A stretch of 64,000 nt of DNA from Candidatus Methanomethylophilaceae archaeon (GTDB taxonomy: Archaea; Thermoplasmatota; Thermoplasmata; Methanomassiliicoccales; Methanomethylophilaceae), in assembly GCA_944320495.1 (NCBI GenBank), contig CALUHR010000003.1, positions 32,001 through 96,000 on the forward strand. The letters are read 5' to 3'. Numbering within the stretch: the first letter of the stretch is position 1; every line of letters starts with the position of its first letter. Position numbers and translations under genes: made by a program. Positions 238-61,686 of the stretch are shown here, in pieces. The notes under the pieces were generated by a model, which was given only the letters and a program-made list of their open reading frames with translations, searched no databases and was not told where the DNA came from.

Positions 238-1076
238 GGATCCTCGTCCTCGGCACGTCCTCCGACGCAGGGAAGACCGTCATCGGCGCCATGATCTGCC
301 GCCACATGGCCCGCAGGGGGCTAGACCCCGTGCCCTTCAAGGCGTTCAACCTGTCGCTCAACTCCTATGCCACCAAGGACGGCGGGGAGATCGGGATGGG
401 GCAGACATTCCAGGCGTGGGCCTGCGGCCTCGAGCCTGAGACCGACATGAACCCCGTGCTCTACAAGCCGTCCGGCGGGGGCAGGATGCAGATGATCGTC
501 GGGGGGAGACCGCTCATGGACATCGGCAACGGCGTCGAGCCCGACAGGGAGGCGGCGGTGAGAGGGATTCGCGAGGCATACGGCAGGCTCTCGTCCGCCC
601 ACGGATGCGTGGTGTGCGAGGGGTCCGGATCCCCCGCCGAGCTGAACCTCATGTCCAGCGACCTCGCCAACACCGGGCTCATGCGCCTCCTGGGAGTGCC
701 CGCGGTGCTGGTCGCCGATATCGAGCGCGGAGGGGCCTTCGCAGCGATATACGGGACGTGGAGGATCATCCCGGAGGACGTCAGACCCCTGCTCAAGGGC
801 TTCGTGATCAACCGCTTCAGGGGCGACGCCTCCATCCTCGGGGACGGCATCAGGAGGATCGAGGAGCTCACCGGCATGAGGTGCCTGGGCGTCATACCCT
901 ATCTGCCGCTTAGGTTCCCGGAGGAGGACTCGCTGTCGCGGTCCGAGGGGAGGCTCCAGGGCGAGGACGTCAGGCAGGCGTTCCTGTCCAACCTGGACGA
1001 GCTGCTCGACGCGGCGGAGGCCGGCGGATTCGACTTCAGGCTCCTGGAGGACATCACGGACGAGGGTCAGAGCCGA
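234..1076 (+). CDS. CobQ-like protein, N-terminal ATPase/synthase domain only (280 aa)
   Basis: GTSSDAGKT P-loop, PFKAxNxSLNS, DMNPVLxKP, EGSGSPAELNL, DIERGG, INRFRGD; no GATase domain. End placed at the first in-frame CGA (1074-1076); the standard code gives 1109. Confidence 0.75.
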
Positions 1077-1166
1077 CGCACGACGACACGATTAACTACC
1101 GACGAGTGATAGTCCAGACAATTCACCCCGGGCGGATCCCCGTACCGGAGGACGGGGGACGTACCC

Positions 1167-2525
1167 ATGAACAGCGAGTACAAGAGATTCATCGAGAGCA
1201 AGGCCAAGGAGTGCCAGTCCATCGACAGCTTCCCGCCGGAGCTCTACGAGAAGTTCGATGTCAAGAAGGGGCTGCGCGACAACAAGGGCAACGGCGTCGT
1301 CGTCGGGCTCACGAGCATCTCCCAGGTCGACGGGACCGAGAAGATCGACGGGAAGAAGGTCCCCTGCGAGGGCAAGCTGCGCTACCGCGGCTACGACATC
1401 GAGGACCTGACCCAGGGGTTCCTGAACAAACGCTTCGGGTTCGAGGAGTGCACCTATCTCCTGCTGTTCGGCAACCTCCCCACCCAGGACGAACTCGAGG
1501 AGTTCAAGATGCACCTGGCCGAGGAGAGGAGGCTTCCCGTCACCTTCACCAGGGACGTCATCATGAAGGCCGCCAACAAGGACATCATGAACTCCGTGTC
1601 CAGATGCATACTGTTCCTCTCCTCCTACGACAAGAACGCCCTGGACAACTCCACCAAGAACGTCCTCAGGCAGTGCATCTACCTGATCAGCGTCTTCCCC
1701 ATGCTCACCGTCTACAGCTACCACGCCTACAACCACTACATCAACGACGAGAGCATGTACATCCACCGCCCGGACCCGAGGCTCTCCACCGCGGAGAACT
1801 TCCTCAGGATGCTCAGGCCGGACAAGTCCTACACCTACCTGGAGGCCACCGTCCTCGACCTGGCGCTGGTTCTGCACATGGAGCACGGCGGAGGCAACAA
1901 CTCCACCTTCACCACCCGCGTGACCACGTCCTCGGGATCGGACACGTACGCGGTCATCGCCGCGGCCATGTCCTCCCTCAAGGGACCGAAGCACGGCGGC
2001 GCCAACCTGAAGGTCATGGACATGATGGACGACCTCAAGCGCCACGTGAAGCATCCGGACAACAGGAAGTCGCTAACCAAGTACCTCTCGGACGTCCTGG
2101 ACAAGAAGGCGTTCGACCACCAGGGCCTGATCTACGGCATGGGCCACGCGGTATACACCCTCTCGGACCCCAGGGCCAAGGTCTTCAAGTCCTTCGTCGA
2201 GAAGCTCGCCGCCGAGAAGGGGAGGCTGGACGACTACAACCTCTACGCCGCCGTCGAGGAGATCGCCCCGGAGCTCATCATGGCCAAGCACCCCAACACC
2301 ACCGGTGTCTCCGCCAACGTGGACTTCTACAGCGGGTTCGTCTACGACCTGCTCGGCATCCCGAGGGAGCTGTACACCCCGATCTTCGCCACCGCCAGGA
2401 TAGTCGGGTGGAGCGCCCACAGGATCGAGGAGATCGTCACCTCCAACAAGATCCTCCGTCCCGCCTACGTGAACATCGGAGAGCCCAGGGAGTACGTGCC
2501 CCTGGACAGGAGGGGTTCCGAATGA
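1167..2525 (+). CDS. gltA: Citrate synthase
   Basis: LHMEHGGGNNST, GPKHGGAN, GMGHAVY, ANVDFYSG, RIVGWSAH motifs; 452 aa. Confidence 0.93.
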   Translation: MNSEYKRFIESKAKECQSIDSFPPELYEKFDVKKGLRDNKGNGVVVGLTSISQVDGTEKIDGKKVPCEGKLRYRGYDIEDLTQGFLNKRFGFEECTYLLLFGNLPTQDELEEFKMHLAEERRLPVTFTRDVIMKAANKDIMNSVSRCILFLSSYDKNALDNSTKNVLRQCIYLISVFPMLTVYSYHAYNHYINDESMYIHRPDPRLSTAENFLRMLRPDKSYTYLEATVLDLALVLHMEHGGGNNSTFTTRVTTSSGSDTYAVIAAAMSSLKGPKHGGANLKVMDMMDDLKRHVKHPDNRKSLTKYLSDVLDKKAFDHQGLIYGMGHAVYTLSDPRAKVFKSFVEKLAAEKGRLDDYNLYAAVEEIAPELIMAKHPNTTGVSANVDFYSGFVYDLLGIPRELYTPIFATARIVGWSAHRIEEIVTSNKILRPAYVNIGEPREYVPLDRRGSE

Positions 2526-2971
2526 TCGGCAACCCCAGCAACAAGGCGATCAGGAACGCCAAGAAGGCGCTGGAGTCCCTGGACCTCAACTACGAGGACC
2601 GCGACGGCACCATCGTGCTGAGCGCCATGGGGGACGACCTGCCCATCGGCATGGTCATCATCGCCGACGACGGCAACATGACCCTGAACATCTACTGCTA
2701 CCTGATGTTCGACTTCGGGTCGGAGGCCAGGATGAAGCTCATCCCCGAGCTGAACACGCTGAACAACACCATAAACAACGGCGGGTTCTACATGTCGGAC
2801 GACGAGAACAAGATCTACTTCAAGATCGTCCAGAGCTTCTACGACCAGGTCCCCTCGGACGAGACCATCGCCCACCTGATCAAGGTGGCGTTCAAGACCG
2901 TCGACGTCAACGACGGCAAGCTGAAGGACCTCATCCCGAAGGACGCGATGAAGGACCTGATGTACTCGTGA
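2522..2971 (+). CDS. YbjN-like / T3SS-chaperone-fold protein (149 aa)
   Basis: ATGA overlap with gltA; MIGNPSNK...MKDLMYS; LNxLNxxxxxGxFY pattern and length fit the YbjN family. Confidence 0.6.
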   Translation: MIGNPSNKAIRNAKKALESLDLNYEDRDGTIVLSAMGDDLPIGMVIIADDGNMTLNIYCYLMFDFGSEARMKLIPELNTLNNTINNGGFYMSDDENKIYFKIVQSFYDQVPSDETIAHLIKVAFKTVDVNDGKLKDLIPKDAMKDLMYS

Positions 2972-3874
2972 TCGCCTTCCGGCGACCATCCTCTCCACCG
3001 GCCTGCGGGCACCGGCGACGACCTCGTCCGGGAGCTCGACGGCCGGTCCCATCTTCTCCAGGCACTCCAGCACGCCCTCGGGGGTTGCCATCTTCATGGC
3101 CCCGCACACGGCGGACTCGGGGAACCACCACACCCTTCCGGGGACCTCCTTATCGAGCCTGTGCCTCATGCCGACCTCGGTGAGCACGATGAACTCCCTC
3201 GACTCGGACTGGCGGCAGTGGCCGATCATGCCCTCGGTGGAACCGATGAAGTCGGCCATCGCGAGGACCGGCGCCCTGCACTCGGGGTGGGCGAGGACCT
3301 CCGCGCCGGGATGCTCGCGCCTGAGCGCCTCCACCTGGCCGACCGATATGGATTGGTGGATGGGGCAGAACCCGTGCCAGAGCTCGATGTCCTTGGATGG
3401 GTTCTTGGATGCGGCGTAGGAGCCGAGGTTCCTGTCGGGAACGAAGAGGACCTTGTCGGAGGACAGTCCCGAGACGACCTTGACGGCGTTGGACGACGTG
3501 CAGCACACGTCCATCTCCGCCTTGCACGCGGCCGTCGAGTTGACATAGCCGACGACCTCGCACCCGGGGTTGCGAGCACGAGCCTCGCGGATCTGCTCCG
3601 GGGTGCACATCTGCGCCATGGAGCACACCGCATCCGGATCGGGGATCAGCACGGTCTTGCCCGGATTGAGGATCTTGGCGGTCTCGGCCATGAAGGACAC
3701 GCCGCAGAACACGATGACATCGGCGTCCGTCTCGGACGCCGCTATGGAGAGGCCGAGGGAATCCCCGACCTTGTCGGCGATGTCCTGCACCTCTGGCAGG
3801 CAGTAGTTGTGCGCCAGGATGATGGCGTTGCGTTCGCACTTGAGCTCGGCTATCCTCTCCGAGACGTCGACCAT
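2972..3874 (-). CDS. nadA: Quinolinate synthase NadA (300 aa)
   Basis: ILAHNY, IADKVGDS, VFCGVSFMAETAK, GYVNS, CTSSNA, AHPEC, CGAMK. Ends ERMVAGR-CGA (2974-2972), abutting the TGA of the convergent gene; the standard code runs on to 2465. Confidence 0.92.
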
Positions 3875-4200: not shown

Positions 4201-4673
4201 ATGAACATGCATATGAATATGCAAGTGCATCAGAATATGCATGTGCATATGAATATGAACCATGAAAACATCACGACTACTGAGGAGAAGGACAGCCATT
4301 CGCTTACAATGGACTCAATCCTGAATCCATCCCCAAAATAGAGAAGGGTCTCAACGAACTGTGCAATAGGATACCCCGCGCTACATCCCACAGCTCTCAT
4401 ATCACGTCTACAAAGGAGCCGATCAACAATCCGAAAGGAAAGTACAGGGACCCGAAGGAGACGAAGGAAGCAATCCTGGAATCGCTCAGGATCAACGGCG
4501 GCCAAAGCGGACGGGAATTGGCGACATCTGTAGGCTACAATGGCGTGAACAACACCTTCCGCAGATGCTTAGCCGAACTCATGGAGGCCGGCCTGGTCGA
4601 ATACTTGTATCCGGACTCACCCAGGGACAGGCGCCAGAAGATATGTCTGGCAAAACGCGGACTAACGCCCCGA
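4201..4673 (+). pseudogene. Frameshifted winged-helix protein resembling the C-terminal HTH of Fic/RecG-C family proteins
   Basis: Frame with ILESLRINGGQSGRELATSVG...LVEYLYPDSPRDRRQKICL has no ATG after a TGA at 4281; a Met/His/Asn-rich ATG frame begins at 4201; a shift is needed near 4300. First CGA at 4671-4673 avoids overlap with mptD. Confidence 0.5.
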
Positions 4674-8759: not shown

Positions 8760-9962
8760 TCGGAGCCTGGCAGTGGAGGACGTCCCCCTGCCCTCCCCTC
8801 CGCACGCCAGGATAACGAGGCACGAGCAGACCGCGGCCATCAGGAGGAACGCGGCGCCCAGGTACCCGATGTACGGAAGGCCGAAGGAGTCGAAGACGAT
8901 TCCCGCGAGATAGGAACCGGCGGCTATCCCCACGTTGAACGACGTTGGGTTGAGCGAGGATACGAGATTGATCGCCTCCGGATAGTCCCTGGTCCCGATC
9001 TCCAGCAGATGCACCTGCACGGAGGCGTTCATGACGTACATCATGAGCCCGATGAGCAGTATGTCGGCCATCCCGGTGACCGCGCCCGCCAGAGCCGTCG
9101 GCAGCAGGAACAGTGCCAATCCCTCCAGCAGGCATCCCCAGCGGACGGTGCGGAACCCCCCGTGGGAGGCTATCCTCCCGGACATCAGGTTGCTGGCCAG
9201 GACGGCCACCCCGTAGGCCATCAGACCGAGGGACACCATGCCCTCTGAGAAGCCGAGCTCGTCCTCGAATATCGGCGTGATGTAGGTGTACACGGCGTAG
9301 ACACCGCCAGCGCTGAAGACCGTCACCAGACATGCGAGCAGGACCCTCGGATCCCTCAGCATCCTCCGTGCCGCGCCCTTACGCCTCGGCCCCGCATGCC
9401 CTCCCGAACGCGGGAGCGTCCTCGCAGCGAAGGCCAGTGCGACGAGCGACATTACCAGTATCAGGACGAACACCGATCTCCACCCGAGGACTCCGGACAT
9501 GTAGGTCCCCAACGGGACGCCCACTATCGACGAGAGGCTGAACCCGGCGAAGACCCACGACACGGCCGCGGAGCGGTGCCTCTGCGTGACCAGGTCCATC
9601 ACGAAGGTCAGACCCACTGCCAGGAGCGACCCCGATGCGGCGGCGGTGACCACGCGGGACACCAGCAGCGGGACGTACCCCCACGACACAAGCGACAGCA
9701 GGTTGGCCAGGATGAACACGACCGCCAGGGACATGGCGAGCCTGTACCTCCCGAACCTCCCCGTGACACCCGTTATAAGAGGCGTGAACACGGCATAGCT
9801 CAAGGCGAAGACGGACACCAGCGAACCGACCGCGGTGTACTCGACACCGAGCCCCGACGCGATGTCAGGCAGGATGCCCATGACGATGAACTCGCTGGTC
9901 CCCATGACGAAGCTCAGGAAGACGAGCGCGACAACCGCCGGAGTGAACAGCCTGTCATCCAC
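8760..9962 (-). CDS. MFS transporter, DHA1/PbuE-NepI type (400 aa)
   Basis: GTSEFIVMGILPDIA, VGVPLGT, NVGIAAGS; about 12 hydrophobic segments; GTG start. Ends STARL-CGA (8762-8760), followed by a GCGATGC/GCATCGC hairpin; the standard code gives 8688. Confidence 0.88.
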
Positions 9963-14108: not shown

Positions 14109-14504
14109 ATGGCCCCAGACGATCCAAGGAAGAAGGTTTGCCTGCGCTGCGGTCACGGATGGATCAGCCATGTCGAGACCCCTGCCAGGTGCCCGTCCTG
14201 CGGTTCGTACCGCTGGAAAGACGAACCGCGGGAGAACCTCTGTCCGGTCTGCGGCCACATGTGGCGCTCGCGCTCCGAGGGCTCCGGAAAGAGATGCCCC
14301 GCCTGCAGAGCGCGTCCGAGAGCATCATCAGATCATGATGGAGGGCACTGCGTGGAAGCGGTCGATAGCAAGAAGGAGGAGATAGTCGGCAGATACCTCA
14401 AGGGCGAGGGATGTGTCAAGATATCCATGGACACAGGACTGTCCGTCGACACCGTGATGAGAACTTTGAAAGGGGTTTCCGACGGCGGGCGCCTGAGGAT
14501 GCGA
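14109..14504 (+). CDS. Double zinc-ribbon plus HTH-like protein (131 aa)
   Basis: CLRCGHGW, RCPSCGS, CPVCGHMW, RCPAC, then a helical segment. Ends GGRLRM-CGA (14502-14504); the standard code overlaps ribH. Confidence 0.65.
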
Positions 14505-16797: not shown

Positions 16798-18186
16798 TCA
16801 GTGCTTGATGTCGAGACCGGCGTCCCTGAGGGTGGCGACGGCCTTGTCGTAGATGTCCAGGTACTCCTGGGTCGGCTTGACGGTCTTGACGTCGTAGCAC
16901 TCCTGGAAGGTCTTGCCGGCCGGAGCGTCGGTGAAGTGGGCCTCGTAGGCGGGCACGATCTTGTTCAGGATCTCGTTGACGTCGGAGATCTTCATTCCGC
17001 AGGTGGCCACGGCGGCGTTGCCCATGATCCTGGCCTCCATTCCGGTGGTCTTGTCCTGGACGACTCCCTTGGCGGCGGCGGATCCGGAGAGGAGCTCCCT
17101 TCCGGAGGCGGTGTCGGTGATCGCCTGGGCGGCGGTCTCCAGCAGGCACATCTCGGTGCAGGGTCCTGCCATCGGGTAGTACTGGTTGGCCAGGAGCAGG
17201 TCGGTGTTGGCGTCGACGGCTGCGGCTGCCCAAGCGGCGACCTGGAGGGTCTCTCTCGCAGTGGTGACTCCCCACCTGATGTGGATGGGTCCGTCCAGGT
17301 GGAAGTTTCCGCTGAAGCAGGCGAAGGATCCGAGGGTGGTGGCGACGTCGCAGATGGCGGTCTCCTCGACGCCTCCGGTGTATCCACCGAAGATGGGCAT
17401 CTGCTCGATCATGATCATGTCGCCGACGGTGGTCCATCCGGCCAGCATGTTCAGTCCGGTCATGTCGATCTTCAGCTCGTTGAGCTGGGAGCACTCGTGC
17501 GCGTCGGTGATCCTGTGTCCCGCGTTGGGGAGATCGGCGCAGAGACGTCCGGCCTCGGACAGAGGCGTCTCGGGTCCCTAAACACCCATGCCGGGCCTGG
17601 CTGCCCTAACACGGGCCTCCTTGACGGCCCTGAGCTCGGCCATGGTCGCACGGATCTCGTAGGGGGTCTTGGTCTTAGCCGGGTGGCCCTCGATCGTGGT
17701 CATGACTCCGTTGACGAGGGTGTCGACGACTCCCTCCTGGGCGTAGGACTGCATGACCTGCACGAAGACGTCCTCGGAGATCGGGGATCCGGTGGGTCCT
17801 CCCTGGATGATCGGCTTGACGTTGCTGTTGCCGTGCCTGGGGTAGAACCTGGCGATGTCTTTTCCCTCTCCGTAGATCATCTTGGTCGGGGTCTTCTTGA
17901 TTCCCTCCCAGACCTCCTCCTCGGTGACGTGCATGACACGGCCGAGGTCCTGGTTGTAGTAACCGACGGTGACCAGCATCTCAAGTCCGGCCTGGAAGAG
18001 CCTGTTGACCATGTCCTTGTCCTCGGGGACGATCTCCTTCGGGTCGAACTTGATGTTGTACTTCTCTTTGAGAGCGGTGAGGTTCTCGGGGGTGATCTTG
18101 TAGTCCCAGTCCTCCACCTTGACTTTCTTTCCCTTCACGAACCTGTCGTAGACGTCGGGGATGGTGAGTGCCCTTGTTGCTGCCAT
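16798..18186 (-). CDS. mtmB: Monomethylamine methyltransferase MtmB (copy 1), Pyl-containing, 462 aa
   Basis: Two track ORFs join through an in-frame TAG at 17580-17578: RPGMGV-O-GPETPLS, matching the MtmB Pyl context; HECSQLNELKID, EQMPIFGGY, NQYY. Confidence 0.95.
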
Positions 18187-24062: not shown

Positions 24063-25419
24063 CATTTTCGAGGCATATGACCGGTTCTTCAAGGGGGAGC
24101 GCGTCACCGAGAACGACTGGGACTACAACATAGTCCCGAAGGCGGCGGCCGACATCAAGGAGAAGTTCAAGATCTCGTTCGGAAGGGACATCATCCCCAC
24201 CGATGAGGACCTGTGCGAGAGACTGTTCCTCGCAGGCATCGACATGCTCCTCACCACCGGGTTCTACAACACCGATCTGAAGAGGGTCATGAGGATCGAC
24301 GAGGACGAGCTCTTCGAGGGACTCAAGATGGCGCCGACGAAGCTGCAGCTCGGCTCCGGCAAGGACCAGCGCGAGTGCCAGGCCCGCCGCGGCAACGCCC
24401 GTCGCAAGCCCATCATCCAGGGTGGCCCTACCGGGGCGCCCGTGTCGGAGGCGAGCTTCGTCCCCATGATCCGCTCTTACGCCCAGGAGCCCGTCGTAGA
24501 CACGATAGTCAGCGGGGTCCTGAGCACCATCAACAACCATCCGGCGACCACCAACACGCCCTGGGAGATCCGCGCCACGATGGCCGAGACCAGGTACGTG
24601 AGGGAGGCATGCCTGATGGCCCAGCGCCCAGGCATGTGCATCTAGGGGCCCCAGACCCCCCTCTCCGCCGCGGGGAGGCTGGCGTCGGACCTCACGCAGC
24701 ACGGCCTCAAGCCCTACGACGCCCACGAGTGCTCCCAGCTGAACGAGCTGAAGATCGACATGTCCGCCCTGAACATGATGGCGGGCTGGCAGGCCGTGGG
24801 GGACATCGTCATGATGGAGCAGATGCCCATCTTCGGAGGCTACGTCGGAGGCGTGGAGGAGACCGCGATCTGCGACGTGGCGACAATGATCGCATCGTTC
24901 GCGATATTCGACTGCGACATCCACCTGGACGGCCCGATCCACATCAGATGGGGGACCACGACCACCCGCGAGACGCTGAAGATCGCCGCGCACGCCGCGG
25001 CCGCTCTGGACCAGAACACCGATTTCCTGCTGGCCAACCAGTACTACACGATGGCCGGGCCCTGCACGGACATGTGCCTGCTGGAGATCGCCGCCCAGGC
25101 GATGACCGACACCGCCTCCGGCAGGGAGCTCCTCTCCGGCGTGGCGTCGTCCAAGGGAGTCAGCCGCGACAGGACCACGGGCATGGAGGCCAGGTTCATG
25201 GGGGAGGTCTCGCTCGCGACCTGCGGGATGAGCATAGAGGACGTCAACAGCACGATCGACAACGTCCTGAAGCTCTACGAGAAGGACTTCGCGAAGGCGC
25301 CCCAGGGAAAGACGTTCCAGGAGTGCTACGACGTCACCACGATGGAGCCCAGCGACGAGTATGTGGAGCTCTACGACAGGATGGTGGACGTCCTCGGTAC
25401 CTGCGGGATGGACTTCCGA
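24040..25419 (+). CDS. mtmB: Monomethylamine methyltransferase MtmB (copy 2), Pyl at codon 202, 459 aa
   Basis: In-frame TAG at 24643-45: RPGMCI-O-GPQTPLS; collinear with copy 1. Ends GMDF-CGA (25417-19), aligned with the GLDIKH* end of copy 1. Confidence 0.92.
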
Positions 25420-25758
25420 TCGCTCCTTGTTCTCCTCGGACACCAGGTTGAGGCCGGCCACCCCGGCGACGATCATGAAGAGGCAGATCCAGCCGACCCA
25501 GTTCAGACCCTCGTCCATCCAGATCATGCCCACCACGACGGCCCCCACGGCGCCGATGGCCGTCCATACCGCGTAGCACGGGCCTGTCGGGAGACCGTGC
25601 CTGAATCCGAGGTTGAGCAGGTACATGCTGATGCCCAGGAAGATCATCATGGGGATCATCCAGAGAGGCTCGGAGAACCCGTCTGTGAACTTCAGGCATG
25701 TCGCCCATGCGGTCTCCGCGACGCCTCCTGCGAGGACGTAGAGCCATCCCCTGTTCAC
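25420..25758 (-). CDS. Small multidrug resistance (SMR/Gdx-like) subunit, 112 aa
   Basis: GGVAETAWATCLK (membrane Glu), GLPTGPCYAVWTAIG; 4 TM; GTG start. Ends EENKE-CGA (25422-20); the standard code runs 1.5 kb antisense through mtmB2. Confidence 0.88.
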
Positions 25759-26897: not shown

Positions 26898-28850
26898 ATG
26901 TCTCAACCTTCAGGAGGACCCGTCGCCGAGGGCGGCGGACGCGTCCTCAGGGTGGCCCTCGTGGGCCAGCCCAACGTGGGCAAATCCTCGCTCTTCACCC
27001 GCCTGACCGGCGTGGGCGTGATATCCTCGAACTACCCCGGCACCACGGTGACGTTCGAGGAGGGCGCCATCACCAGGAACGGCTCCACAGTCAGCGTCCG
27101 CGACCTGCCCGGCACCTTCGGCATATCCGGGAACTCGGACGACGAGAGGGTCGTCATCAGGAACCTGAGGGAGCAGGGGTTCGACTGCATCATACTGGTG
27201 GCCGATGCCACCGGCCTGTCCGGGAGCCTTGTGCTGTGCGAGGAAGCCCTCGAGCTGGGGCTCCCGACCATCGTGGCGCTCAACAAGATGGACGAGGCCC
27301 GCAAGAGGCTGTCCATCGACAGCTCGAAGCTGGAGGAGGCCCTCGGCGTGCCGGTAATTCCGGTGTCCTCGAAGACCTCCGAGGGCGTCGACGAGCTCGC
27401 TGACGCGGTATGCGCCGGGAAGGCGAGGCTCCCCAAGTCCGACATGCGCTTCGACGACGGGATCGAGGCGGCCATCGCAGGGATAACTGAAGCCCTGCCG
27501 GACGGCATGCCATTCTCCAAGCGGGGCGTGGCCATCAAGATCCTCGAGCACTCGCCCGAGTTCGACCCCCTGGCCGACGACGACACCCGCCGTTCAGCCG
27601 GCCTCATGCGCCGCGTGTACTCGGAGCGCGAGGGCAGGTCCATGGCGGTGTCCATCGCCACCGAGAGGTACTCGTGGGCGGAGAAGGTCGTGTCGTCCTG
27701 TGTCGAGAAGGACGAGAGCAGGCTGTCCCTTGCCGACAGGATATCGGACATCACAATCACGCCGATCACCGGCCTGCCGATCCTCGTGCTGATATGCCTC
27801 GGCATACTCACGGTGATCGTCTACGCCGGCTCGTTCCTCGACGGGGTGGTGAACGGTGTCTACAGCTCCGTCATCGGGAGCGCTCTCATCGACTTCGGCC
27901 GCTCCATCGGAGGGGACTTCGGCGAGGCCGTGTTCACCGGGATCGACGGGAGCTTCCAGGCGATGCTGGCGCTCGTCATCCCCTACATCCTCGTCTTCTA
28001 CATCATCCTGGGCATCCTGGAGGATTCCGGATACCTGACCAGAGCGGTCGTGCTCCTGGACAACATAATGCACCACTTCGGTCTCCACGGAGGCTCTTTC
28101 ATCCCCATGATCGTCGGCATCGGGTGCAACGTGCCGGCCATCCTGGCGGTGCGCACGGTCAAGTCCCGCAGGGAGAAGATCATCCTCTCCTCTATAATCA
28201 TCATGGCCGTCCCCTGCTCGGCGCAGCTGGCCATAATCATGGGCGCCACAGGGTCCTACGCCGGGGTGCTCTATGCGTTCGGCATCCTCGTGATGCTCGT
28301 CTGCCTCGGCATGGCGGTCGGCGTCCTCATGAACAGGTTCCTGAGATACGAGCCAAGCGACCTCGCCATGGAGCTGCCCCCGCTGCAGATGCCCACGGTC
28401 AAGAACATCCTGTTCAAGACCTGGCACAGGATCAAGGACTTCCTCTACATCGCGTTCCCCCTGCTCGTGGTGGGCTCCATCGTGGTGGAGATCCTCATCT
28501 CATACGATCTGCTCGGGGCCATCGTCGATCCGCTCTCGCCCATCACCGTCGGCATCCTGGGACTTCCGGCCGTCTGCACCATAGCGTTCATCGTCGGCAT
28601 CCTGAGGAAGGAGATGGCCGTAGGGATGCTCTCGGTACTGGCAGGAGGGGTCGCCCTGGAGGAGTTCATGACGCCGGACCAGTTCGTGGTGTTCGGAGTG
28701 GTGATGGCGGTGTACATGCCGTGCCTCGCCACCCTCCTGACGATGTGGCGCGAGATCGGGTGGAAGGAGACCATCTGCGTGAGCGTCCTGTCCATAGCGG
28801 TGGCCATCGCCCTCGGAGGGGCGGCCAACCTGCTGCTCCAGCTGTTCCGA
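26898..28850 (+). CDS. feoB: Ferrous iron transporter FeoB (650 aa)
   Basis: GQPNVGKS, NYPGTTV, DLPG, NKMD, LEDSGY, GIGCNVPA, PCSAQ, YMPC. Ends LLLQLF-CGA-CGA (28848-53); the standard code gives a 986-aa run-on over ubiD. Confidence 0.93.
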
Positions 28851-28902
28851 CGACGCCTCCGGAGGAACCAAGCATATTATCGGATGATGCCATCCAGCGC
28901 TC

Positions 28903-30210: not shown

Positions 30211-30480
30211 TCGGTCCTCGGCCTCTGTCGAGTCAGCGGAGGGCATCGCGACATTCTGCATCAGGAGCTGGCCCTTGTCGGTCAGCACGAGGACGTCGTC
30301 GGCGTACTCCATGTAGCCTATCGTGATTATCGTGTGGACGCTCTTGGATGCGCGGTAGTCGCCCTCGACCCTGTCGCGCGACCATCCCGCGTACCTGCGG
30401 ACATCCTTCTGGAGGGACGACACGTACCTCGGACGATCCATCCGCGGTTCGGCGTTCCTCCTGCGTAGAGTGAATCTCAT
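30211..30480 (-). CDS. Small hypothetical protein (89 aa, possible winged helix)
   Basis: MRFTLRRR...GYMEYADDVLVLTDKGQLL; AT-rich promoter upstream; ends at CGA (30213-11), three codons before a TGA. Confidence 0.55.
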
Positions 30481-33600: not shown

Positions 33601-36600
33601 AGGGACCGCTACACCTTCGACGTCACCTACGTGACTGCTGACGGCACCTTCCGCGAGGACACCGCCCGCGAGGGGTACGAGTACGCCATCATTCAGGATG
33701 TCCCGGTCAACGGGGACCACATCTTCGACGGATGGACCGCGGACGGACTCGGATCCGCGCTGTTCGGCGGAGAGAAGGTTGAGCTCGACGGCGACACGAC
33801 CTTCACGGCTCAGTGGAGGGAGCGCGAATCCTACGACGTCACCTACGTGACCTCCGACGGCACCTTCCGCGAGGATACGGCAGTCGAAGGCATGCCCTAC
33901 GAGATCATCGACGACATCCCGACCTCCGAGGATTCCGTCTTCGTCGGCTGGGAGATCGACGGAAGCGACGGCACGCTCGTCGGAGGAGATTCCGTCACCA
34001 TAGACTGCGACACCGTCCTCACCGCGCAGTGGAGGGACAGGTACCAGTATGGTGTCGTCTACGTCACGGATGACGGCGAGATCCTCAGGGAGACGGTCTA
34101 CGAGGGAATCCCCTACATCGTCGCCGACACCGTCCCGGAGAGGGAGGACGGGATCTTCGTCGCCTGGAGCGACGATGACAGGAACCAGCACACAGCAGGC
34201 GATTCCATCATCGTCGACGGCGAGTGCCAGCTCACCGCAGTATGGCGCGACAGGGCCGAGTACTCCGTGACCTTCAAGGCCGGCGATTCGGAATTCCTCG
34301 TGACCACCGCCTACGAGGGGCTGGACTTCACCATCGACGCCGGCATCCCCACGGGAGAGGGCATCTTCACCTACTGGCTCATGGAGGGCTCCGACGAGCA
34401 GCTCGAGGACGGCGACGTCCTGAGGCTCGACAGGGACGTCGTGCTCACCGCCCAGTGGAGGGAGCGCCAGACCTTCGACGTCGTCTACGTCTCCGACGGG
34501 GAGGAGCTCCTCAGAGAGACCGCCTACGAGGGGATTCCATACAAGATCGCAGACACCACCCCCGAATCCGAGAGCGGCATCTTCGTCGCCTGGCAGGATG
34601 CCGACGGCGACCAGCACACCGCGGGAGACTCCATGGACGTCTCCGCCGAGTGCACCCTGACCGCCGTATGGCGCGAGAGGTCGGAGTACACCGTCACCTT
34701 CGTCTCCGACAGAGAGACCGTAAGCACGGACACCGCCATCGAGGGCGTGCCCTACGAGATCCCCGAACTCGATCTCGAGAAGGACGGCATGGTGTTCGTC
34801 TCCTGGAGCTACGATGACCAGAACTACTCCGCCGGAGACGAGATCGACGTCTCTGGCCCTATCACCCTGACCGCCGTGTGGCGCGAGATCGCCGAGCACA
34901 CGGTCGTGTTCGTCGATACCGAGGGCAACGAGCACTATGTCACCGTCGAGGACGGCGAGAGCCTGACCATCGACATCGAGGAGCCCTCGGATTCCGACAG
35001 GATCTTCCTCGGCTGGAGCGTGAACGGCTCCGACGAGCTTGTACACGCGGGAGACGAGATCACCGTCGACGGGGACCTGACCCTGAACGAAGTGTGGAGG
35101 GACCGTTACACGTTCACCGTCACCTACATGATGGAGGATGGCACCTTCCTCGAGGATACAGCGGTCGAAGGTATCCCCTACACGATCGTCGACGACATCC
35201 CGGTCTCTGAGACTTGCATCTTCGACGGGTGGATGATGGACGGACGTGATTCCGCCCTCTCCGGAGGGGAGGAACTCGTCCTCGACGACGACACCACCTT
35301 CACGGCGCAGTGGAGGGAGCGCGAGACCTACGACGTGGTCTACATGTCCGAAGGCTCGGAGTTCCACAGGGACACCGCGTACGAGGGCATCCCCTACACG
35401 ATCGCAGACGATGTTCCGATCTCCGAGACCGCGACCTTCGCCGGCTGGGCCGCCGACGCATACGGCGTCCTCCGCGCCGGCGATGAGATCACGGTGGACG
35501 GGGACACTGTCCTCACCGCCGAATGGACACCTCTGATGGGATTCACCGTCATCTACATGTCGGACGGCGAGACGGTCGCCGTGGACAGCGCCTTCGAGGG
35601 AGTCCCCTATCAGATCATCGAGCTACAGCCCGAGAACGGTGAGCGCATCTTCGTCGGATGGGCGCTCGGGGAGCAGGTCCTCGCATACGGAGACAGCATC
35701 GACGTCACTGAGAACCTCGTCCTCGACGCCGTCTGGAGGGAAAGGGAGACCTACACCCTGACCTTCGTGTCCGAAGGTGCGGAGTTCATGACCACTCAGG
35801 CCGTGGAGGGCATCCTCTTCACGATCGGTGCGGAGATCCCCGAGAACGGCGACATGGTCTTCGACGGATGGATCGTCGACGGGACAGACGTCATCCTCCG
35901 CGAGAGGGACGGCTTCATCCCCGAGGGAGATACCGTGCTGACGGCGAAGTGGAGGGACTCGTCATGCTTCACGGTCACCTACGTGACCGATGACGGCACC
36001 GTCCTGACGGACACCGCCAGGGAGGGCGAGCCCTACACTGTGGAGCACTGGAACCCCGCCGATTCGGACATGATCTTCACCGGCTGGAGGGTCGGCGGAG
36101 AGGGCGAGATCCTCAACGCTGGCGACACCATCGATGTGACCGGCGATATCACCCTCGTGGCCTCCTGGCGCGAGAGGGGAGACATCTCAGTCACCTACGT
36201 CGTCGACGGAGACACGTACATGGTCGGCACCGCCACAGAGGGCGTGCCGTACCAGATCGAGGATTGGGTTCCCTCGGACATCAATGGTATCTTCGTCGGA
36301 TGGTCATTGGCCGGTTCCGATGTCACGCTCGTCCACGGGGACAGCATGACTCTCGCCGAGGACGCCGTACTCGAGGCGGTCTGGAGGGAGAGGCTGCAGT
36401 ACGATGTCACCTTCGCGGTCGACGGGGAGACGTTCCTCACAGGAGTAGCCACCGAGGGGCTCCCGTTCGAGATCCCCGAGGGCGTTCCCGAGAGGCAGGA
36501 CGCCGTCTTCGACGGCTGGATGCTCGGAGAGCAGAGGCTGTACGCCGGCGATTCCGTCGTCCTGACAGGGGACACCGTCCTGGAGGCATCCTGGCGCGAC

Positions 36601-37578
36601 AGGATAGAGTACACCGTGACCTACGTCTCCGGCGACGAGGAGATCCTCGTCGGCACCGCCTACGAGGGGCTCCCGTACACTATCGATTCGACGATCCCCA
36701 CGGACGGGACGATGCTGTTCACCGGATGGTCCCTCGACGGCGACGTCCTCGAGAGAGGGGACGTCATCACCGTCGAAGGCGACATCACCCTCACCGCGAA
36801 CTGGAGGGCGAAGGAGACGTTCACCCTCACGTACGTGGTGGACGGCAGCGTCATCGGCTCTGTTCTGACGGTGCTCGAAGCCACGTCGGTGACCGTGGAC
36901 ATGAGTGTGTCTTCGCCGTGGGCGGAGTTCCTCGGATGGAGCGACGGCCACGACCTGTACCCCGTAGGCTCGCAGTACGTGGTCACCGCCGACACCGTCC
37001 TCCACGCGATGTGGGGCGAGAAGACCCCGTCGTGCCCGGAGGATCCTGACGACGGAGATGATCCGAAGGAGCCGGAGACCCCCGGAGAGGACGAGACCCC
37101 CGATGAGGAGGAACCCGACACCGATGACAGGGAGCCAGAGACTCCCAGCACGGACGACGACAGTAACGATCCTGCCGTCGATGATGGGGACCACTCCCAC
37201 ACCGGAACGACCGGCGGAAGCACCGGAGGCTCCGGAAGCACCGGCGACTGTCCCTCCGACAGGCCCTCGACCGGACCGGAGACGCCTTCGGACGATGATT
37301 CCGAGAGACCCTCCGATGAGCCTTCCGACGAGCCCTCCGGCGACGATCCCGTCCCGGAGGACCCGGACGACGGCACCGACGAGACGCCTGACGACACGGA
37401 CGACACCCAGGGACCGAGCGATCAGGACCCCGAGGACGACGGAGGAAACGTCTCCGACATCACCCAGACGACCACCGATAACAGCGACGAGGGCGGCATA
37501 GCCGTCCCGGCCGCCATTGCGGCGGCCGTCGCCGCCGTCGTGGTCTGCATGCTGCTGGTCGTCGCCAGGCGTAGCTGA
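30673..37578 (+). CDS. Giant membrane-anchored surface protein with about 25 InlB-B/Listeria-Bacteroides-type repeats (2301 aa), one in-frame TAG
   Basis: Signal-like N-terminus; about 70-aa repeats (YxVTY...FxGW...GD...LTAxWR); D/E/P/S/T linker; C-terminal TM plus RRS. Track ORFs 30673-32670 and 32704-37578 are one frame joined by TAG at 32668-70. Confidence 0.88.
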
Positions 37579-43216: not shown

Positions 43217-46200
43217 TCGGCGTCCGCTGCCTACCGCCTCCAATCCGCCTTCTAGATCCGGAAGGATCGTGATGGTCAGTCCCGTCCCGTCATGGAACAC
43301 TGTGAACTGCCCAGTTCCCGCCCCTTCCACTTTAAGAGTCTTGGAGTCCGCATCGTAGGATACCAGATGCGTATCGCTCCATGTGAACACATGGACCTGG
43401 AATCCGGGAACCCCGAGATCGACAACCACACCCTGCGCGAACTGCGACTGGGTGGCCGTCACGCTTATGACTTCGGGAACCCCCGCTTCGCCCGTGAGCC
43501 GCGGCATCGCATAGTATGTTATGGTCTGGGAATCACCAGCCTCGATGGAATCGACCACGGCATAGACGCCGTCGGACATCTCCATCCAGACCTGGGAGTC
43601 CCCCACAACCAGGACACTCGCATTGTCGCAGTGCGGTGCTTTCTTTTCCGAGATAATGGTCCATCTCTCACTGTCGAAGAGTGAACCGTCCAGAGAACGG
43701 TACTCTATGGTGTAGGCTATCAGGTCGAGATGCACCGTGCCCTCGAACCTGTCGGACGTCAGCGGGATGCTGATCGTTCCGGTCTCGAATCCTTCCAGAC
43801 CCACCGTGAGCTGGGTGCTGTTGTACGCATCCGTCGGCACCTGTGCGGTGAAGATCATACGAGCGTCGGAGATAGTGCCGTCGACAATCGTGACAGTCGA
43901 GGAGGATCCGAGGCTGAAGTCAAACCTTATCGACATCCCCGTGAGCCTGGATACCATCTCCTCATCCAGCTCGTTCTCGCTCTCATCGCGGAATACCACG
44001 ATGATTGACACCTCTGTGCTCTGGAGCGTCGCGATGAGCTCCACATCCACCGTTCCGAGGACAAGATACACCATTGAGGAACCTGTCATGGTTCCGGCAT
44101 CGGTGCCGACCTGGGAGGTGGACATGGTGTATGCATCCTCAGTGACAACGGTCAGGATGTACCCCTCGAAGAGAACATCCCCTTCTTGGGCTTCGACCGC
44201 TCCGCTCTCGTTTCCGGATACATCCACGGATGCGACATTCACTGATGATATCCCTTCCCCGATGTCCTTGAGCTCCACCTGCCGGTAGACGGAGAACGTT
44301 AGCTCCACATCCTCCTGGACATCGAGATTCAGTGTCACACTCACGGTCACCCTCCCGCCAATGCTCCCACTATCCGAATCAGTGAGCATCCTCTCGCCCA
44401 TCCACATCGCGTAGCGGTAGCCTGTGGGAAGACTGACTGAGATCGTGATCGATCCAGAGTCAACGACGGCACCCTTCGAATCAGGATTGTTGCCGGTAAA
44501 CGATATGCTTCCGAAACTCCCGAATGAGATCGTCGCTGAGCCATCGCCGAGACCGCTGGAAAGGCCATCGTCCCCGGTGTAACCTACGGTGACGGTGACC
44601 CCAGTCCTGAGATGGATCTCCAGCTCCAGGGTCCCCTCACCATCGTCACCGGCATTCGGCACTACAAACGCCATCTCCATCCCGGGGACCCCGCTGATGG
44701 CTACGCTGTTGTCTCCATAGGAACAGACAGCGGATGAGATCCTGTAGCCATCATCAGCGGTCACGACGACCCTGAGCCCGAACGCCACGCTCAGTGTGGC
44801 ATTCCAGGAACCCGAGCTCGGAGTCCAAGATATCTCCTCTGTGGACCAGAGCCCCTCGAACGAGAGCACTGAACTGGGGTCGCCACCCTCGACGATGACT
44901 TTCATTGTGTACTCGTTCGGCTCCCAAGGCACGTACAGTGTGGTGTCGGTGTACAGGACTGTATCGTCGAAAGAGAATTCGTCTGCATCCGTGAATCCCC
45001 CAACAGGTGCTGAGGAACTCAGGGTCCAGTACTTTCCTGCGAGATGATACCCGGGATATGCCGTGGCGGCCGTGCCGTCCCAGGGTATGACCAGTCCCTC
45101 CCCTTCATCTCCCGGTTCGCCGATGCCGTTGGCCTTCAGCGTGGTCCCGGGTCTGATGTAGACGCTGGTGGTCTCTAGATGGACGTACTGTCCGACGAAA
45201 GAGACCTTGATGCCGAACTTGGCGGTGAGGGTCAGTGACTCCTTGAGCTCGGACGTCATGTTGTACTTCAGAGTCTCGCTGACGTACCAGCCGTCGAGAC
45301 TTTTGAAATATGTGAAGATCGACCCATCTTTCAAGGTTTCGTCGGGGATTAGCGTCAGGAGCCATCCCATCATCTCCCCGATGGTCCCGGTGACCTGCTG
45401 ACCGTCCCTCATGTATGTAATGGTCTCGCTCTCGAGGATGCCTCCGAAGGGGATCTTGATGGATTCCGAGGGGGAATCTGACCATACGAAGGTGTAGATT
45501 CCAGTACTCTGATCCATGGTCACTTCGAGACCGTGTACTTCCCCGTCGATGTCCTTGTATTGAAGGGCCAGGTCCACGGGCTTGGCCTCTTGGAAATGAA
45601 CCGTGACACGATAGTTCACAGTCTCACTACCAGCGGTAGCAACCACGGTGAACACTGTGGACTGCATCTCGCCATCGCCGGAATAGAATATCCTCATTAC
45701 CGAGTCCTTGACACCGCCCTCTCCGAACTCCTTACCTTTGGCATCGGAACCGTTGAGGCCGTCGCTCATGTACTGCGATGCCACCCAGCCCTTGCTGGAC
45801 AGATACGTGGTGTCCGCGAACAGCGTCAGATCCCCGTCGACATCGCTCGTAATCGTGTAGGAGTGCCTGTTTCCGAGGGAGGGGAATAGGACATACCCGG
45901 TACCAGTGCAACGTCCGCCCGACACGGTGGTCATTATGGTGACAGACAGATCGATCGTTTCCGGTACGCTCCTGGGGAGGACGTTGAGCGTGACCTCGAC
46001 ATCGACGAAGTTCACGGGCAGATAGCTTACACTCCCGTTTAGCGTATACGGGATTACCTCCGCCAGGTGCAGAGTGATCACCCCTACGTTCCCCGTCGTC
46101 CCGAAGACGGTCGTTTGATTCATACCGAGATATGAGTTCGATATCAGGGAAGCATCGACGCGTATGGCGAAGTCGTTGGCATTTCCTACTTCTTCGTATG

Positions 46201-55453: not shown

Positions 55454-56380
55454 TCGTGCCCTCCCGATCCTCTCCCTCGCCCTGTCCAGGAGCTGGCAGG
55501 ACTTGCAGCTTCCTCCGAGCGTGGGCTCCCCGCAGCGGGGGCACGGGTGCATCTCCGTCTCCGGCAGACCTGCCCTCAGCATCGGCTTCAGGGAATCGTA
55601 CGACGAGAGTATGCCGAACCTCGCCCCGGGCGAGCGGTCCTCGAGCTGGTCCACGATGTCGCGGTACTGGTTCCTCAGGGCGGCCTCCCAGTAGGGGCAC
55701 ACCCCGTCCCAGAACTCCATCCCCGAGACGATTGCGTATAGCAGCGTCTCCTTCTCCGGGATCGTCCTCAGCGGGAGGAACCTCGGGACGAGACCGGGCT
55801 TCACGACGTCGTGCGGTGCCATGCGCGCCAGGCGCTCCACGTCGCCCCTCACGAAGTTCATCATGATCGACTGCGACATGTCGTCCAGGTTGTGGCCCGT
55901 CGCCAGATACCTGGCGCCGATCCTCCTCGCCTCGTCGTTCATGAGCATCCTGCGGAACACGCCGCAGTAGGTGCAGGGGCTGCTGTCCCCGCTCACCGGC
56001 GCGATCTCGTCCATCGTCACTCCCATCTCCGAGAAGGAGCGCAGATGGAACCCCACACCGTTGGATTCGCAGAACCTCCTGACGATGTCCACGCTGGGCG
56101 GGCGGTAGCCCGCGATGCCCTCGTCGATCGTTATCGCATGGAGCTCGACGCCGTTCCTCTCGTTGAACACCGACGCCAGCATCCTGAGGGCGACCATGCT
56201 GTCCTTCCCCCCGGACACGGCGACGGCTATCCTGTCCCCGCGGGAGACGTCGATCTGCTTGCGGATCTCCCTCTTGACCCTGCGGTCCACGTACCTCATG
56301 AAGTGCTCGGCGCAGAGGTGCGTGCCGTTGTACCTCACGAACGTGACGGCGTCGCGGCCGCAGACGTCGCAGGATGTCAT
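55454..56380 (-). CDS. tRNA 2-thiolation protein TtuA/NcsA/Ctu1 family (308 aa)
   Basis: CDVC...HLC zinc site, AVSGGKDS PP-loop, CTYCGVFRR, ATGHNLDD, CPY, CPRCG...CKSC. Ends RIGRA-CGA (55456-54). Confidence 0.92.
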
Positions 56381-57524: not shown

Positions 57525-57525
57525 G

Positions 57526-58488
57526 TCGGTTCCTGCTGCAGCGGATGAATCCGGAGCACGGGACGACCTCTATGCCCTCCCGCTCCCAGATGTCGCAGAT
57601 CAGGTTCACTCCCAGGGAATCCGACGGCATGTGGCCGGACACGACGAGGTTCACGTGCGCCTCCCTGGCCGCATCGTAGTGGGACTCGGGGAAGTGCATC
57701 GCGATGACCGTCCCGACGCCCGCGCGGGCCAGGGCCTCGTACATCTCCTTCGGTCCGGAGGTGCCGCCGGTCATCTTGCACATGATCCTCCCGCAGCGGG
57801 AGTCCTTCGATCCGACCATCACGGTGGGGACACAGTTCCTCCTGGCCGCGGCCACGTACTCCGGCTCACCCATGAGGACGTCGACGATGTCCCCGAGGGT
57901 GCGGGGGGCCCTCTCGTCCATGAGCCTCGTGAGGTAGTCCTGGACCATGTTGTCCGCGGCCGAGTGGACGTTGAACATCGGGATGCCCAGCATCCTCGCG
58001 GCATCGGCGGCCTGGTCGTAGTTGGAGCCCATGACGCCTCTGAGCACCTCGGAGGTCCTCGGCCCGACGATCCCCTCGGCGACGTTGATAGGCACGCCCT
58101 CGGCATGGTACATGTCCGCCTGGATCGGAATCACGTTGGGGTACAGGTTCCGGGATTTCCCCGTGGGATGGTGCGCCACCACAGCGTCGATGCGCTCCCC
58201 CTTGGAGCGGAGGCGGTCGGCCAGCAGGACCTCGGCGGGTCCGATGTCTATGCCCCACATCATCCTGGAGGCCTCGGTCTCGCGCGCCAGCTCCTCCAGG
58301 GCGGAGAACCTGCAGTCGGAGTAGGGGTTCCAGAGACGCTCGGTGTCGAAGCACTCGCGCCTCCATCCCTCCGACCTCTCGTATTCGGAGGCCGCCGCGT
58401 CCAGGACGCGCCTGACCTCGTCCTCCGGACGGGGGTCCTTCCCCATGCCCGCCCTGATGGCGGCCTCGTAGGCCTCGTAGACCTTCAT
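57526..58488 (-). CDS. NIF3/NGG1p-interacting-factor-like protein (320 aa)
   Basis: GID...VAHHP, HSAADN, MHFPE, SGHMPSDSLG. Ends CSRN-CGA, 1 nt before the cdc6 ATG; the standard code gives 693 aa. Confidence 0.8.
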
Positions 58489-60841: not shown

Positions 60842-60897
60842 GCCCGTCCCAAACAAATCAAACGCATTGATCCCCATTTCAAATGGTTACAGAATGG

Positions 60898-60923
60898 TTC
60901 CGAACTAGTTCGGAACTAGTTCC
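60898..60923. repeat. Overlapping palindromes with an 11-bp period
   Basis: TTCCGAACTAGTTCGGAA (60898-915, perfect 18-bp palindrome) and GGAACTAGTTCC (60912-23) between convergent genes. Confidence 0.75.
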
Positions 60924-61029
60924 TGAACACCCGGCGACGGGTGACCACCAGTGAGAGCACGGGCATCCGTATCGCTTATCCCCAATGGACGTCTTAATCA
61001 CAGCGACATGGATTGCGGAACCGGGCCGA

Positions 61030-61686
61030 TCGGTCCCCGCACATCTCGCGGGACAGGCGCTCCCTCAGCTCGTCCAGGCTCCGGAAGACCTCCGCCTTGG
61101 ACCGGATCTCGTCGTCGGCGTCGGTGAGGTCCGGTACGAACGCGACCCTGCATCCGGCATCGTAAGCGGACCTCACGCCGTTGGGCGCATCCTCCACCGC
61201 GATGCAGTCGCACGGCCTCTCGCCCACCCTCTCGCACGCGTACAGATAGACGTCCGGGCTGGGCTTACCGTTCGGTACCGACGACGTGCAGACGACCTCG
61301 TCGAACATCACGCGAATCCCGAGCATGTTCAGATACTCGTCCACGTGGTCGGGGCGGGACGCGGTGGCGACCGCCGTCTTGATGCCGGAGGACCTCAGGA
61401 ACCCCAGTATCCCCACGACGCCGGGCTTCATCTCTATGCCCTCGGAACGCACGTGCTCGGCCATCAGCCGGCGGCGCTCCTCCCTCACGGCCCCGAAGTC
61501 CATGCCCGGATGGTTGGATTCCAGGTACTGCCTGGCGAGCCTCCCGTCCAGGCTGCGGATGTGGAGCACCTCGTCCCTCGTTATCCCGAAGCCCAGGTTC
61601 CTCCCGGCCTCCATCCAGAACCTCACGTTGAGCTTCTCGGTGTCGATGAGGGTGCCGTCCATGTCGAAGATGACCGCTCCGGTCAT
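61030..61686 (-). CDS. HAD-superfamily phosphatase (beta-PGM-like, 218 aa)
   Basis: IFDMDGTLID, ATAS, GKPSPDVY, VEDAPNG. Ends MCGD-CGA (61032-30); the standard code gives 60994. Confidence 0.9.

Follow-up and report, generated by a model that had tools for sequence, protein, structure and literature searches.

CGA as a probable leaky fourth stop codon in part of a genus of Methanomethylophilaceae

The stretch of DNA considered here, referred to as the window, comprises 64,000 nucleotides of a Candidatus Methanomethylophilaceae archaeon (positions 32001-96000 of contig C3 of the source genome, G000, an assembly of 1.77 Mb in 14 contigs with 61% GC), and our subject is the arginine codon CGA, at which many of its genes appear to end. 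Under translation table 11 the window is crowded with very long open reading frames (ORFs) that overlap one another. A first-pass annotation of the window had proposed that CGA acts as a stop codon and had listed 14 genes that end in it. With a gene finder that relies on codon usage, self-trained on the whole genome and allowing TAA, TAG, TGA and CGA as ends (the four-stop model), 12 of these 14 ends were recovered, together with a weak additional CGA end at 24060 on the forward strand; the two others, those at 4671 and 14502, do lie in frame and close small ORFs, but ortholog support for them was not found. In the window the ORFs of this model end in TGA (36), CGA (13), TAG (3) or TAA (1), and over the whole genome in TGA (1131), CGA (386), TAA (50) or TAG (19), which bears out the earlier inventory of stops in which TGA is far ahead of CGA, and CGA ahead of TAA. 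Accepting CGA as a stop yields 1586 ORFs genome-wide as compared to 1255 without it, and the summed coding score is higher as well; by this model, CGA ends approximately 24% of all genes. In two genomes that still use CGA as a sense codon (G063 and G031), the four-stop model merely fragments genes and is uninformative.

Among the gene ends of the window (Table 1), the alignment of feoB is the clearest single case. In the column of its end, five sister species have TTC-TGA, and G000 and the sister species G013 have TTC-CGA-CGA; past the two CGA codons, G013 meets a TGA three codons on, while G000 runs for 335 codons over the next gene in another frame. The long run-ons that had been predicted for reading CGA as Arg were likewise confirmed for cdc6/orc1, with 331 further codons across the ttuA-like gene, and for the NIF3-like gene, with 372 across cdc6/orc1. 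In cdc6/orc1 the Cdc6_C domain stops at residue 363, CGA is codon 386 and G013 has TGA one column off; for the NIF3-like gene G013 has TAA one column off, and a Pfam search gave no match at E <= 1e-5. The MtmB profile reaches its last position (450/450) three residues ahead of the CGA of mtmB, a column in which both G013 and G004 have TGA, and read-through would add 162 codons. Similarly, the NadA profile (1-294/295) stops at residue 310 of nadA and CGA is codon 314, again with TGA in the same column of the G013 ortholog and 168 codons added by read-through. Read-through of the SMR-like gene would add 489 codons, and its G013 ortholog has TGA within three residues, whereas the G013 ortholog of the ttuA-like gene has TGA eight residues later. 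The HAD_2 profile (1-178/178) stops at residue 184 of the HAD hydrolase, in which CGA is codon 219. In the CbiA/CobQ-like gene the last residue of the Pfam CbiA match is 224 of 280, a TGA ends the G013 ortholog a few residues off, and the next standard stop lies 10 codons on. An MFS_1 match spans residues 15-319 of the MFS transporter, and no ortholog of this gene was found among the sister-species DNA compared. Orthologs of the hypothetical gene end near the same place in TGA (G013, G002) or CGA (G004). The giant surface protein gene has no internal CGA at all, and the TGA that follows eight codons past its CGA makes it a weak case by itself. No Pfam family matched any of the run-on parts beyond the CGA ends of the window. 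As to the two unconfirmed ends, an ortholog end was not found for the ORF at 4671, which resembles a winged helix-turn-helix (wHTH) protein and was not selected by the four-stop model, nor was ortholog support found for the Zn-ribbon-like ORF at 14502. At 25417-25422, the ends of mtmB and the SMR-like gene adjoin each other in the palindrome CGATCG, with a separate CGA for either gene, and at 2969-2974 two genes meet on TGATCG, one ending in TGA and the other in CGA.

Table 1. CGA gene ends in the window and further features of the source genome (positions refer to the window unless a contig of G000 is named)
Feature	Position	Strand	Remarks
CbiA/CobQ-like gene, CGA end	1074..1076	+	ORF 234-1076; four-stop model
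nadA, CGA end	2972..2974	-	four-stop model, Pfam, ortholog
wHTH-like small ORF closed by CGA	4671..4673	+	in frame, unconfirmed
MFS transporter gene, CGA end	8760..8762	-	four-stop model; 402 codons
Zn-ribbon-like small ORF closed by CGA	14502..14504	+	in frame, followed by CGC CCG; unconfirmed
In-frame TAG	17578-17580	-	coding sequence on both sides
In-frame TAG	24643-24645	+	coding sequence on both sides; in mtmB
mtmB (monomethylamine methyltransferase), CGA end	25417..25419	+	in-frame TAG at 24643
Small SMR-like membrane protein gene, CGA end	25420..25422	-	convergent with mtmB
feoB, tandem CGA-CGA end	28848..28853	+	
Hypothetical gene, CGA end	30211..30213	-	106 codons; weak coding score
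In-frame TAG	32668-32670	+	coding sequence on both sides; codon 681 of a 2317-codon ORF (30625-37578)
Giant surface protein gene, CGA end	43217..43219	-	2339 codons; four-stop model
ttuA-like PP-loop gene, CGA end	55454..55456	-	four-stop model, Pfam
cdc6/orc1, CGA end	56367..56369	-	four-stop model, Pfam, ortholog
NIF3-like gene, CGA end	57526..57528	-	four-stop model
HAD hydrolase gene, CGA end	61030..61032	-	four-stop model, Pfam
aRF1 gene	C2:85942-87135	-	locus L064:1492-2724 (-)
NifH-like/NifD-like fusion ORF	C5:79781-81964	-	CGA at 81061; loci L207-L223
PylS	C9:67854-68522		above curated cut-off
GmhA/GmhB fusion	C13:193618-194718	-	CGA at 194145; loci L240-L257
tRNA-Arg(UCG)	C13:413317-413390		further loci of the genus L022-L033, L192-L200

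For a view beyond single genes, coding potential was scored over 50 codons on each side of every occurrence of a codon in the whole genome. CGA was flanked on both sides by coding sequence in 7 of 1104 in-frame occurrences (0.6%), as compared to 28% for CGG, 45% for CGT, 55% for AGA, 74% for CGC and 80% for AGG. Conversely, 9.8% of the CGA codons lie at transitions from coding to non-coding sequence, against 1.7-3.4% for the other Arg codons, a three- to sixfold enrichment, and the pattern is present on every contig, beyond the window too, and by far exceeds what chance would produce. Upon inspection, two or three of the seven internal codons proved to be gene boundaries that share a frame, leaving about four to five truly internal CGA codons per approximately 400,000. 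The first-pass annotation had found no internal CGA; the genome-wide count upholds near absence, and the stricter wording is true of the window and not quite of the genome, in which a handful persist at conserved sites, including Arg78 of the release factor aRF1. Out of frame, CGA occurs about 36,000 times within genes, 28,662 times in frame +1 (observed/expected 0.96) and 7,141 times in frame +2, that is, in NCG-A codon pairs (observed/expected 0.87-0.94). CGA is thus missing in frame only, and since only the ribosome reads the frame, this indicates that the translation machinery is at work; it argues against a motif-directed editor, an effect of restriction or methylation, and base-calling error.

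Comparison of orthologous gene ends, for which the C-terminal 150 residues of G000 genes were aligned to the DNA of 12 sister species of the same genus, placed CGA at C-termini where relatives have standard stops. In 37 same-column pairs a CGA of G000 faces a TGA, in 9 a TGA of G000 faces a CGA, and in 31 both genomes have CGA; the 37 pairs back the earlier placement of CGA at gene ends. In G018, a separate assembly with 93-97% nucleotide identity to G000, the corresponding pairs are CGA/CGA (19), CGA/TGA (2) and TGA/TGA (115). As 19 of the 21 CGA ends are repeated there, the C has to be regarded as real, and the switch between T and C at the first stop position is, to judge from the alignments, an ongoing substitution. 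The 33-kb contig C4 of G000 differs from the rest of the genome in that CGA ends only 1 of its 33 genes, as against about 24% genome-wide, and the syntenic stretch of G018 is likewise nearly without CGA ends; highly expressed genes are a possibility.

Several properties of the ends bear on how strong a terminator CGA is. The next standard stop follows after a median of 23.5 codons, with 26% of the distances being at least 100 codons, which is similar to the situation after TGA (29 codons and 23%), so that the extensions have not been kept short; about 23% of the CGA ends have a standard stop within five codons. The share of CGA ends amounts to 6.5% in the top quintile of codon bias and 36% in the bottom quintile (Mann-Whitney p = 1.5e-20), a tandem stop directly follows 10% of CGA ends versus 4% of TGA ends, and 56% of CGA ends have T as their +4 base and 8% have A. 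We read this as CGA being a usable but weaker terminator than TGA, at which termination would be leaky.

The first-pass annotation had suggested loss of tRNA-Arg(UCG) as part of the explanation, and here the result is to the contrary: the gene, of Arg type with anticodon TCG and A20 in the D-loop, is present in G000 and in each of the 15 other genus members examined. Its anticodon arm is, however, non-canonical in 16 of 16. In 13 members, with a tRNA of 73-75 nt, positions 31 and 39 do not pair (A.A, C.A or U.C), and G008, G007 and G015 have a different tRNA-Arg(UCG) gene of about 75-77 nt, which was missed by BLAST with the G000 tRNA and found by a covariance model, with a 27-43 mismatch and C33 in place of the near-universal U33. 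By contrast, the arm is canonical in six of six relatives outside the genus, with C31-G39 and the loop CUUCGGA or CUUCGAA. Only G000 and G018 have U32 and C38, and hence the loop UUUCGGC instead of CUUCGGA. Based on this structure, tRNA-Arg(UCG) is likely to be a weakened decoder, and a tRNA that is retained but weakened fits a model in which it competes with aRF1 for CGA.

The gene of aRF1 itself contains CGA. In G000 its only such codon is that of the conserved Arg78, in the context GCT-CGA-CTC, and each of the 21 genus members sampled likewise has a single in-frame CGA in this gene, located at Arg78 in 20 and at Arg25 in the remaining one. The context of codon 78 is fixed as NCT-CGA-CTN within the genus, where nearby synonymous sites vary, and 36 of 38 public aRF1 loci with at least 82% identity have CGA at this codon. 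Outside the genus but within the family, a single CGA recurs at Arg25, Arg11, Arg123, Arg50 or Arg326, and other families of the order have one to four CGA at non-conserved places in aRF1. At about five internal CGA per 400,000 codons, the chance of finding one in a gene of 410 codons is approximately 0.5%. The presence of CGA at a conserved Arg implies that the codon can still be decoded, and a release-factor gene that keeps a codon purged elsewhere would look like feedback of the RF2 type. The gene of bacterial RF2, prfB, is autoregulated through an in-frame UGA, a +1 frameshift and a Shine-Dalgarno-like stimulator. As in prfB, a release-factor gene holds a conserved in-frame codon that is proposed to be the target of the factor itself, provided that aRF1 reads CGA, and full-length product would require the factor to be outcompeted. 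Unlike in prfB, no +1 frameshift site with a stimulator is found; the reading frame of aRF1 is unbroken, CGA occupies the column of a conserved Arg, plain read-through by tRNA-Arg would suffice, and the feedback is predicted.

The N-domain of aRF1 was also inspected. The motifs NIKS, YxCxxxF and the equivalent of GTS have no genus-specific change, and the relaxed first-position specificity that the first-pass annotation had envisaged may be supposed but not read from these motifs. Two substitutions were considered and discarded. An Arg-to-Met change three residues after NIKS (NIKSKTTM), at a site where the aRF1 of Halobacterium and Aeropyrum has a conserved Arg, is shared by the whole family and does not follow the use of CGA, and a G-to-S change in the GTS-equivalent loop is restricted to G000 and G018, while G010 has more CGA ends without it. 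As TGA is the dominant stop and TAG has been given to pyrrolysine (Pyl), a UGA-focused release factor is a plausible starting point. In UBA480, a public metagenome-assembled genome, the aRF1 gene ends in ...RYRPN-CGA (L279:1531-1533), and G000 has TGA in that column.

Further in-frame CGA codons reside at the junctions of two fusion enzymes. In the NifH-like/NifD-like ORF, the motif GREIRP is followed at a distance of 9-14 codons by CGA in all 17 orthologs of the genus and in several paralogs; the linker differs in every species, and the conserved CxxC segment downstream is without a start codon. This CGA may yield both a short and a fused product. The junction codon of GmhA/GmhB is CGA in eleven species, AGA in two and TAG in one; in G005 and G007 a TAA divides the region into two overlapping genes, and in two outgroup genomes of one genus (G024 and G028) the junction has AAA, a plain Lys codon. 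Judged from these alignments, the CGA codons in aRF1 and at the two junctions would have to be read through at least sometimes. At these sites the +4 base is C in aRF1, G in gmhAB and in most cases A in NifH/D, as opposed to the T that is favoured at gene ends. Two other in-frame CGA codons of G000 were noted, at C8:55685 (+) in an apparently intact flavodoxin-like gene, whose G010 paralog has His in that column, and at C5:178733 (+) inside an apparently intact membrane protein gene; these two may have arrived recently, mark genes in decay or be additional sites of read-through.

At least six more species have CGA ends, one of them with a closed 1.9-Mb genome. Estimated from samples of 20-200 kb, and hence roughly, CGA accounts for about 30% of gene ends in G010, 22% in G001, 14% in G099, 10% in G013, 9% in G004 and 7% in G006, and for none in G015, G061, G007, G008, G005 and G002. 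Internal CGA is absent from the samples of 13 of 14 genus members and occurs once in the fourteenth, G008. Nor was it seen in what was sampled from four additional genera of the family (g15, g16, g23 and g17, the last represented by a single contig of 1,666,795 bp), and six other genera have 5-16 internal CGA per approximately 11,000 codons. In G087, CGA termination was considered and dismissed, as only two CGA codons lie 2-4 codons ahead of a TGA, which is not evidence for it there. This distribution suggests as the likely order of events that CGA became rare and costly, was kept in aRF1, and that gene ends in the GC-rich lineages of one genus subsequently drifted from TGA to CGA.

Taken together, it is very probable that translation ends at CGA, whether by aRF1 or by a stalled ribosome, and the account best supported by the sequences, which we regard as probable, is that CGA is a leaky fourth stop at which aRF1 competes with a weakened tRNA. 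According to this account, the ribosome would usually terminate at CGA in G000 and part of its genus, with aRF1 reading CGA as a near-cognate of UGA and outcompeting a tRNA-Arg(UCG) with a defective anticodon arm. An in-frame CGA would then mostly truncate the protein, leading selection to purge CGA from reading frames, while T-to-C drift in a GC-rich genome would have converted about a quarter of the TGA stops, mostly those of weakly expressed genes. Residual decoding as Arg would be kept for a few sites, namely Arg78 of aRF1 as a feedback sensor and the junctions of the two fusion enzymes, at which a short product could form alongside the fused one. The distribution of the codon, the ends of the orthologs, the features of the tRNA and of aRF1 and the conserved internal CGA sites are observed, and we infer aRF1 as the agent, the leakiness of termination and the regulatory role of the internal sites. 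It might further be speculated that CGA has a dual meaning, as the terminator of hundreds of genes and as a site of programmed read-through that governs the level of aRF1 and the forms of the NifH-like/NifD-like and GmhA/GmhB products, with the balance set by a deliberately weakened tRNA-Arg(UCG); this extension we hold only tentatively, at somewhat below even chances. A number of observations weigh against termination by aRF1 at CGA or against its extent. CGA is not a pure stop, as conserved Arg positions are written with it and the cognate tRNA has not been lost. The decoding motifs of aRF1 (NIKS, YRC, GTE), of which Y-R-C at the YxC motif is common to the whole order, are identical in relatives that use CGA as an ordinary Arg codon, and the genus-specific substitutions A17D, S142C, F250V and x270I all lie outside the known decoding motifs. 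The samples of G008, G015, G007, G061 and G005 contain neither internal CGA, apart from the one in G008, nor CGA ends, and in genus members of this type CGA may simply be unused. Finally, with gene models that depend on codon usage and CGA being common off-frame, some low-scoring CGA-ended ORFs are probably spurious, and the figure of 24% is approximate, the share being 14-26% when limited to genes with orthologs.

Some of these observations would also suit a stall. CGA would then be a hungry, effectively unassigned codon with a slow tRNA-Arg(UCG), at which ribosomes stall and are released by drop-off or by aPelota/ABCE1 rescue and not by aRF1; the protein would end at CGA in this case as well. 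The anticodon arm that is non-canonical throughout the genus, the aRF1 motifs without genus-specific change and the genus members that avoid CGA wholly without using it as a gene end are all in line with this explanation. Rescue of the Pelota type, however, does not hydrolyse peptidyl-tRNA, and leaving it unhydrolysed would make a poor routine end for a quarter of the genes; in addition, CGA and TGA swap freely in the same column, and the conserved CGA that is kept through the genus and much of the family resides in aRF1 itself, pointing to aRF1 as the reader. We therefore consider a stall unlikely. Much less probable still is editing of the genomic CGA from C to U, so that the message would contain UGA, a standard stop. 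A single transition is all that this explanation, which the first-pass annotation had raised as an alternative, would require; but an editor would also hit the approximately 7,100 NCG-A pairs and convert Ser, Pro, Thr or Ala codons to Leu, Met or Val codons, and these pairs are barely depleted, so that the motif is not avoided out of frame. Moreover, Arg78 of aRF1 and the junction codons must be read as sense, and we know of no C-to-U editing of mRNA in archaea.

That CGA is an ordinary Arg codon, and that the proteins carry C-terminal extensions up to the next standard stop, appears just as improbable as editing. The existence of tRNA-Arg(UCG) and the ends with a standard stop within five codons would agree with it, but it leaves the near absence of CGA inside genes unexplained, the quarter of extensions that reach 100 codons or more pass through neighbouring genes in the wrong frame, and the run-on parts have non-coding codon usage and no Pfam match. 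Least credible, with a negligible chance, is an artefact of assembly or base calling, or a deliberate alteration, by which T was changed to C at stops, an alternative that had also been named at the outset. The frame test and the independent assembly G018 both disfavour it: the CGA ends shared between the assemblies and those in at least six further species would have to be explained, the frame-specific removal of CGA from some 400,000 codons is beyond any sequencing error, and the sequences of window and genome are identical.

For a leaky stop read by aRF1, a precedent exists in yeast, where eRF1/eRF3, competing with tRNA-Arg, brings about measurable termination at CGA (Wada and Ito 2018, PMC7379694), and where the UGA-biased eRF1 variants L123F/R/Y led to better growth of a CGA-stall reporter strain, which was read as more release at CGA (PMC7379694). 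The Y-R-C of aRF1 corresponds to the residue of the yeast L123R variant. The yeast case is one of low-level misreading in reporters, whereas in G000 CGA would be the normal end of a quarter of the genes, with codon usage reshaped. Sense codons that have become stops are known from mitochondria (NCBI tables 2, 22 and 23), namely AGA/AGG in vertebrates, UCA in Scenedesmus and UUA in Thraustochytrium. As in these organelles, the codon is gone from reading frames, with 7 of 1104 occurrences (about four to five after inspection) at sense positions, and is found at gene ends; in contrast to their tiny genomes without a cognate tRNA, this is a 1.8-Mb cellular genome with approximately 390 CGA ends, in which the tRNA is kept and CGA apparently retains its Arg meaning at a few conserved positions. 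Codes with ambiguous stop/sense codons are known from Condylostoma and Parduczia (PMC4967479) and from Blastocrithidia. In these, one codon likewise serves as terminator or sense codon depending on position or context, but there eukaryotic standard stops have gained sense, while here an archaeal sense codon would have gained a stop function. Within the same family of gut methanogens, Genetic Code 34 has been described, in which all TAG codons encode pyrrolysine and only two stop codons remain (Kivenson et al., bioRxiv 10.1101/2024.09.30.615893); G000 also reads TAG through and has PylS, and CGA is mentioned nowhere in that paper. Full absence of CGA from domains aligned by hidden Markov models has been reported for two archaeal assemblies (KACI; Melnykov 2026, bioRxiv 10.64898/2026.04.02.715157), where the possibility of a stop was raised. 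Unlike G000, the KACI archaea are from hydrothermal vents, have CGG as Trp and lack a tRNA(UCG); evidence from gene ends was not given, and the question was left open there. In full-text searches of the literature, no description of Methanomassiliicoccales that use CGA as a stop came up. To our knowledge, all firmly established changes of prokaryotic codes consist in a stop or sense codon being newly assigned to an amino acid.

If CGA indeed terminates translation in these archaea, this would be the first case of a sense codon having become a stop in a free-living cell and thus a new direction of code evolution, and an intermediate, ambiguous stage of a code change would be visible in the wild. 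Table 11 annotations of these gut methanogens would then be in error for about a fifth of the genes, in the form of run-on fusions and masked neighbours, and the change would escape tools of the Codetta type, which are blind to stops. The conserved CGA of aRF1 would offer a testable case of archaeal release-factor feedback, and a naturally weakened tRNA/aRF1 pair would be of interest to genetic-code engineering, which already uses the Pyl systems of this family.

The earlier reading of TAG as a sense codon for pyrrolysine was supported. Each of the three in-frame TAG codons of the window is followed by hundreds more codons, and two of them lie in methyltransferase-type genes and are conserved in G013 and G004. 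Genome-wide, 10 TAG codons are internal and no more than 4 possibly end a gene, and PylS, the part of the Pyl machinery that was looked for, is present; the genome thus fits a code in which all TAG would be read as Pyl. A minor observation concerns the provenance of public aRF1 sequences: contigs with aRF1 of the family occur in bins labelled as bacteria (loci L278, L280, L281, L290, L294, L297, L298 and L325), among them Ruminococcus sp. CAG:579, Bifidobacteriaceae, Lachnospiraceae, Prevotella hominis and Dialister hominis, and look like binning contamination.

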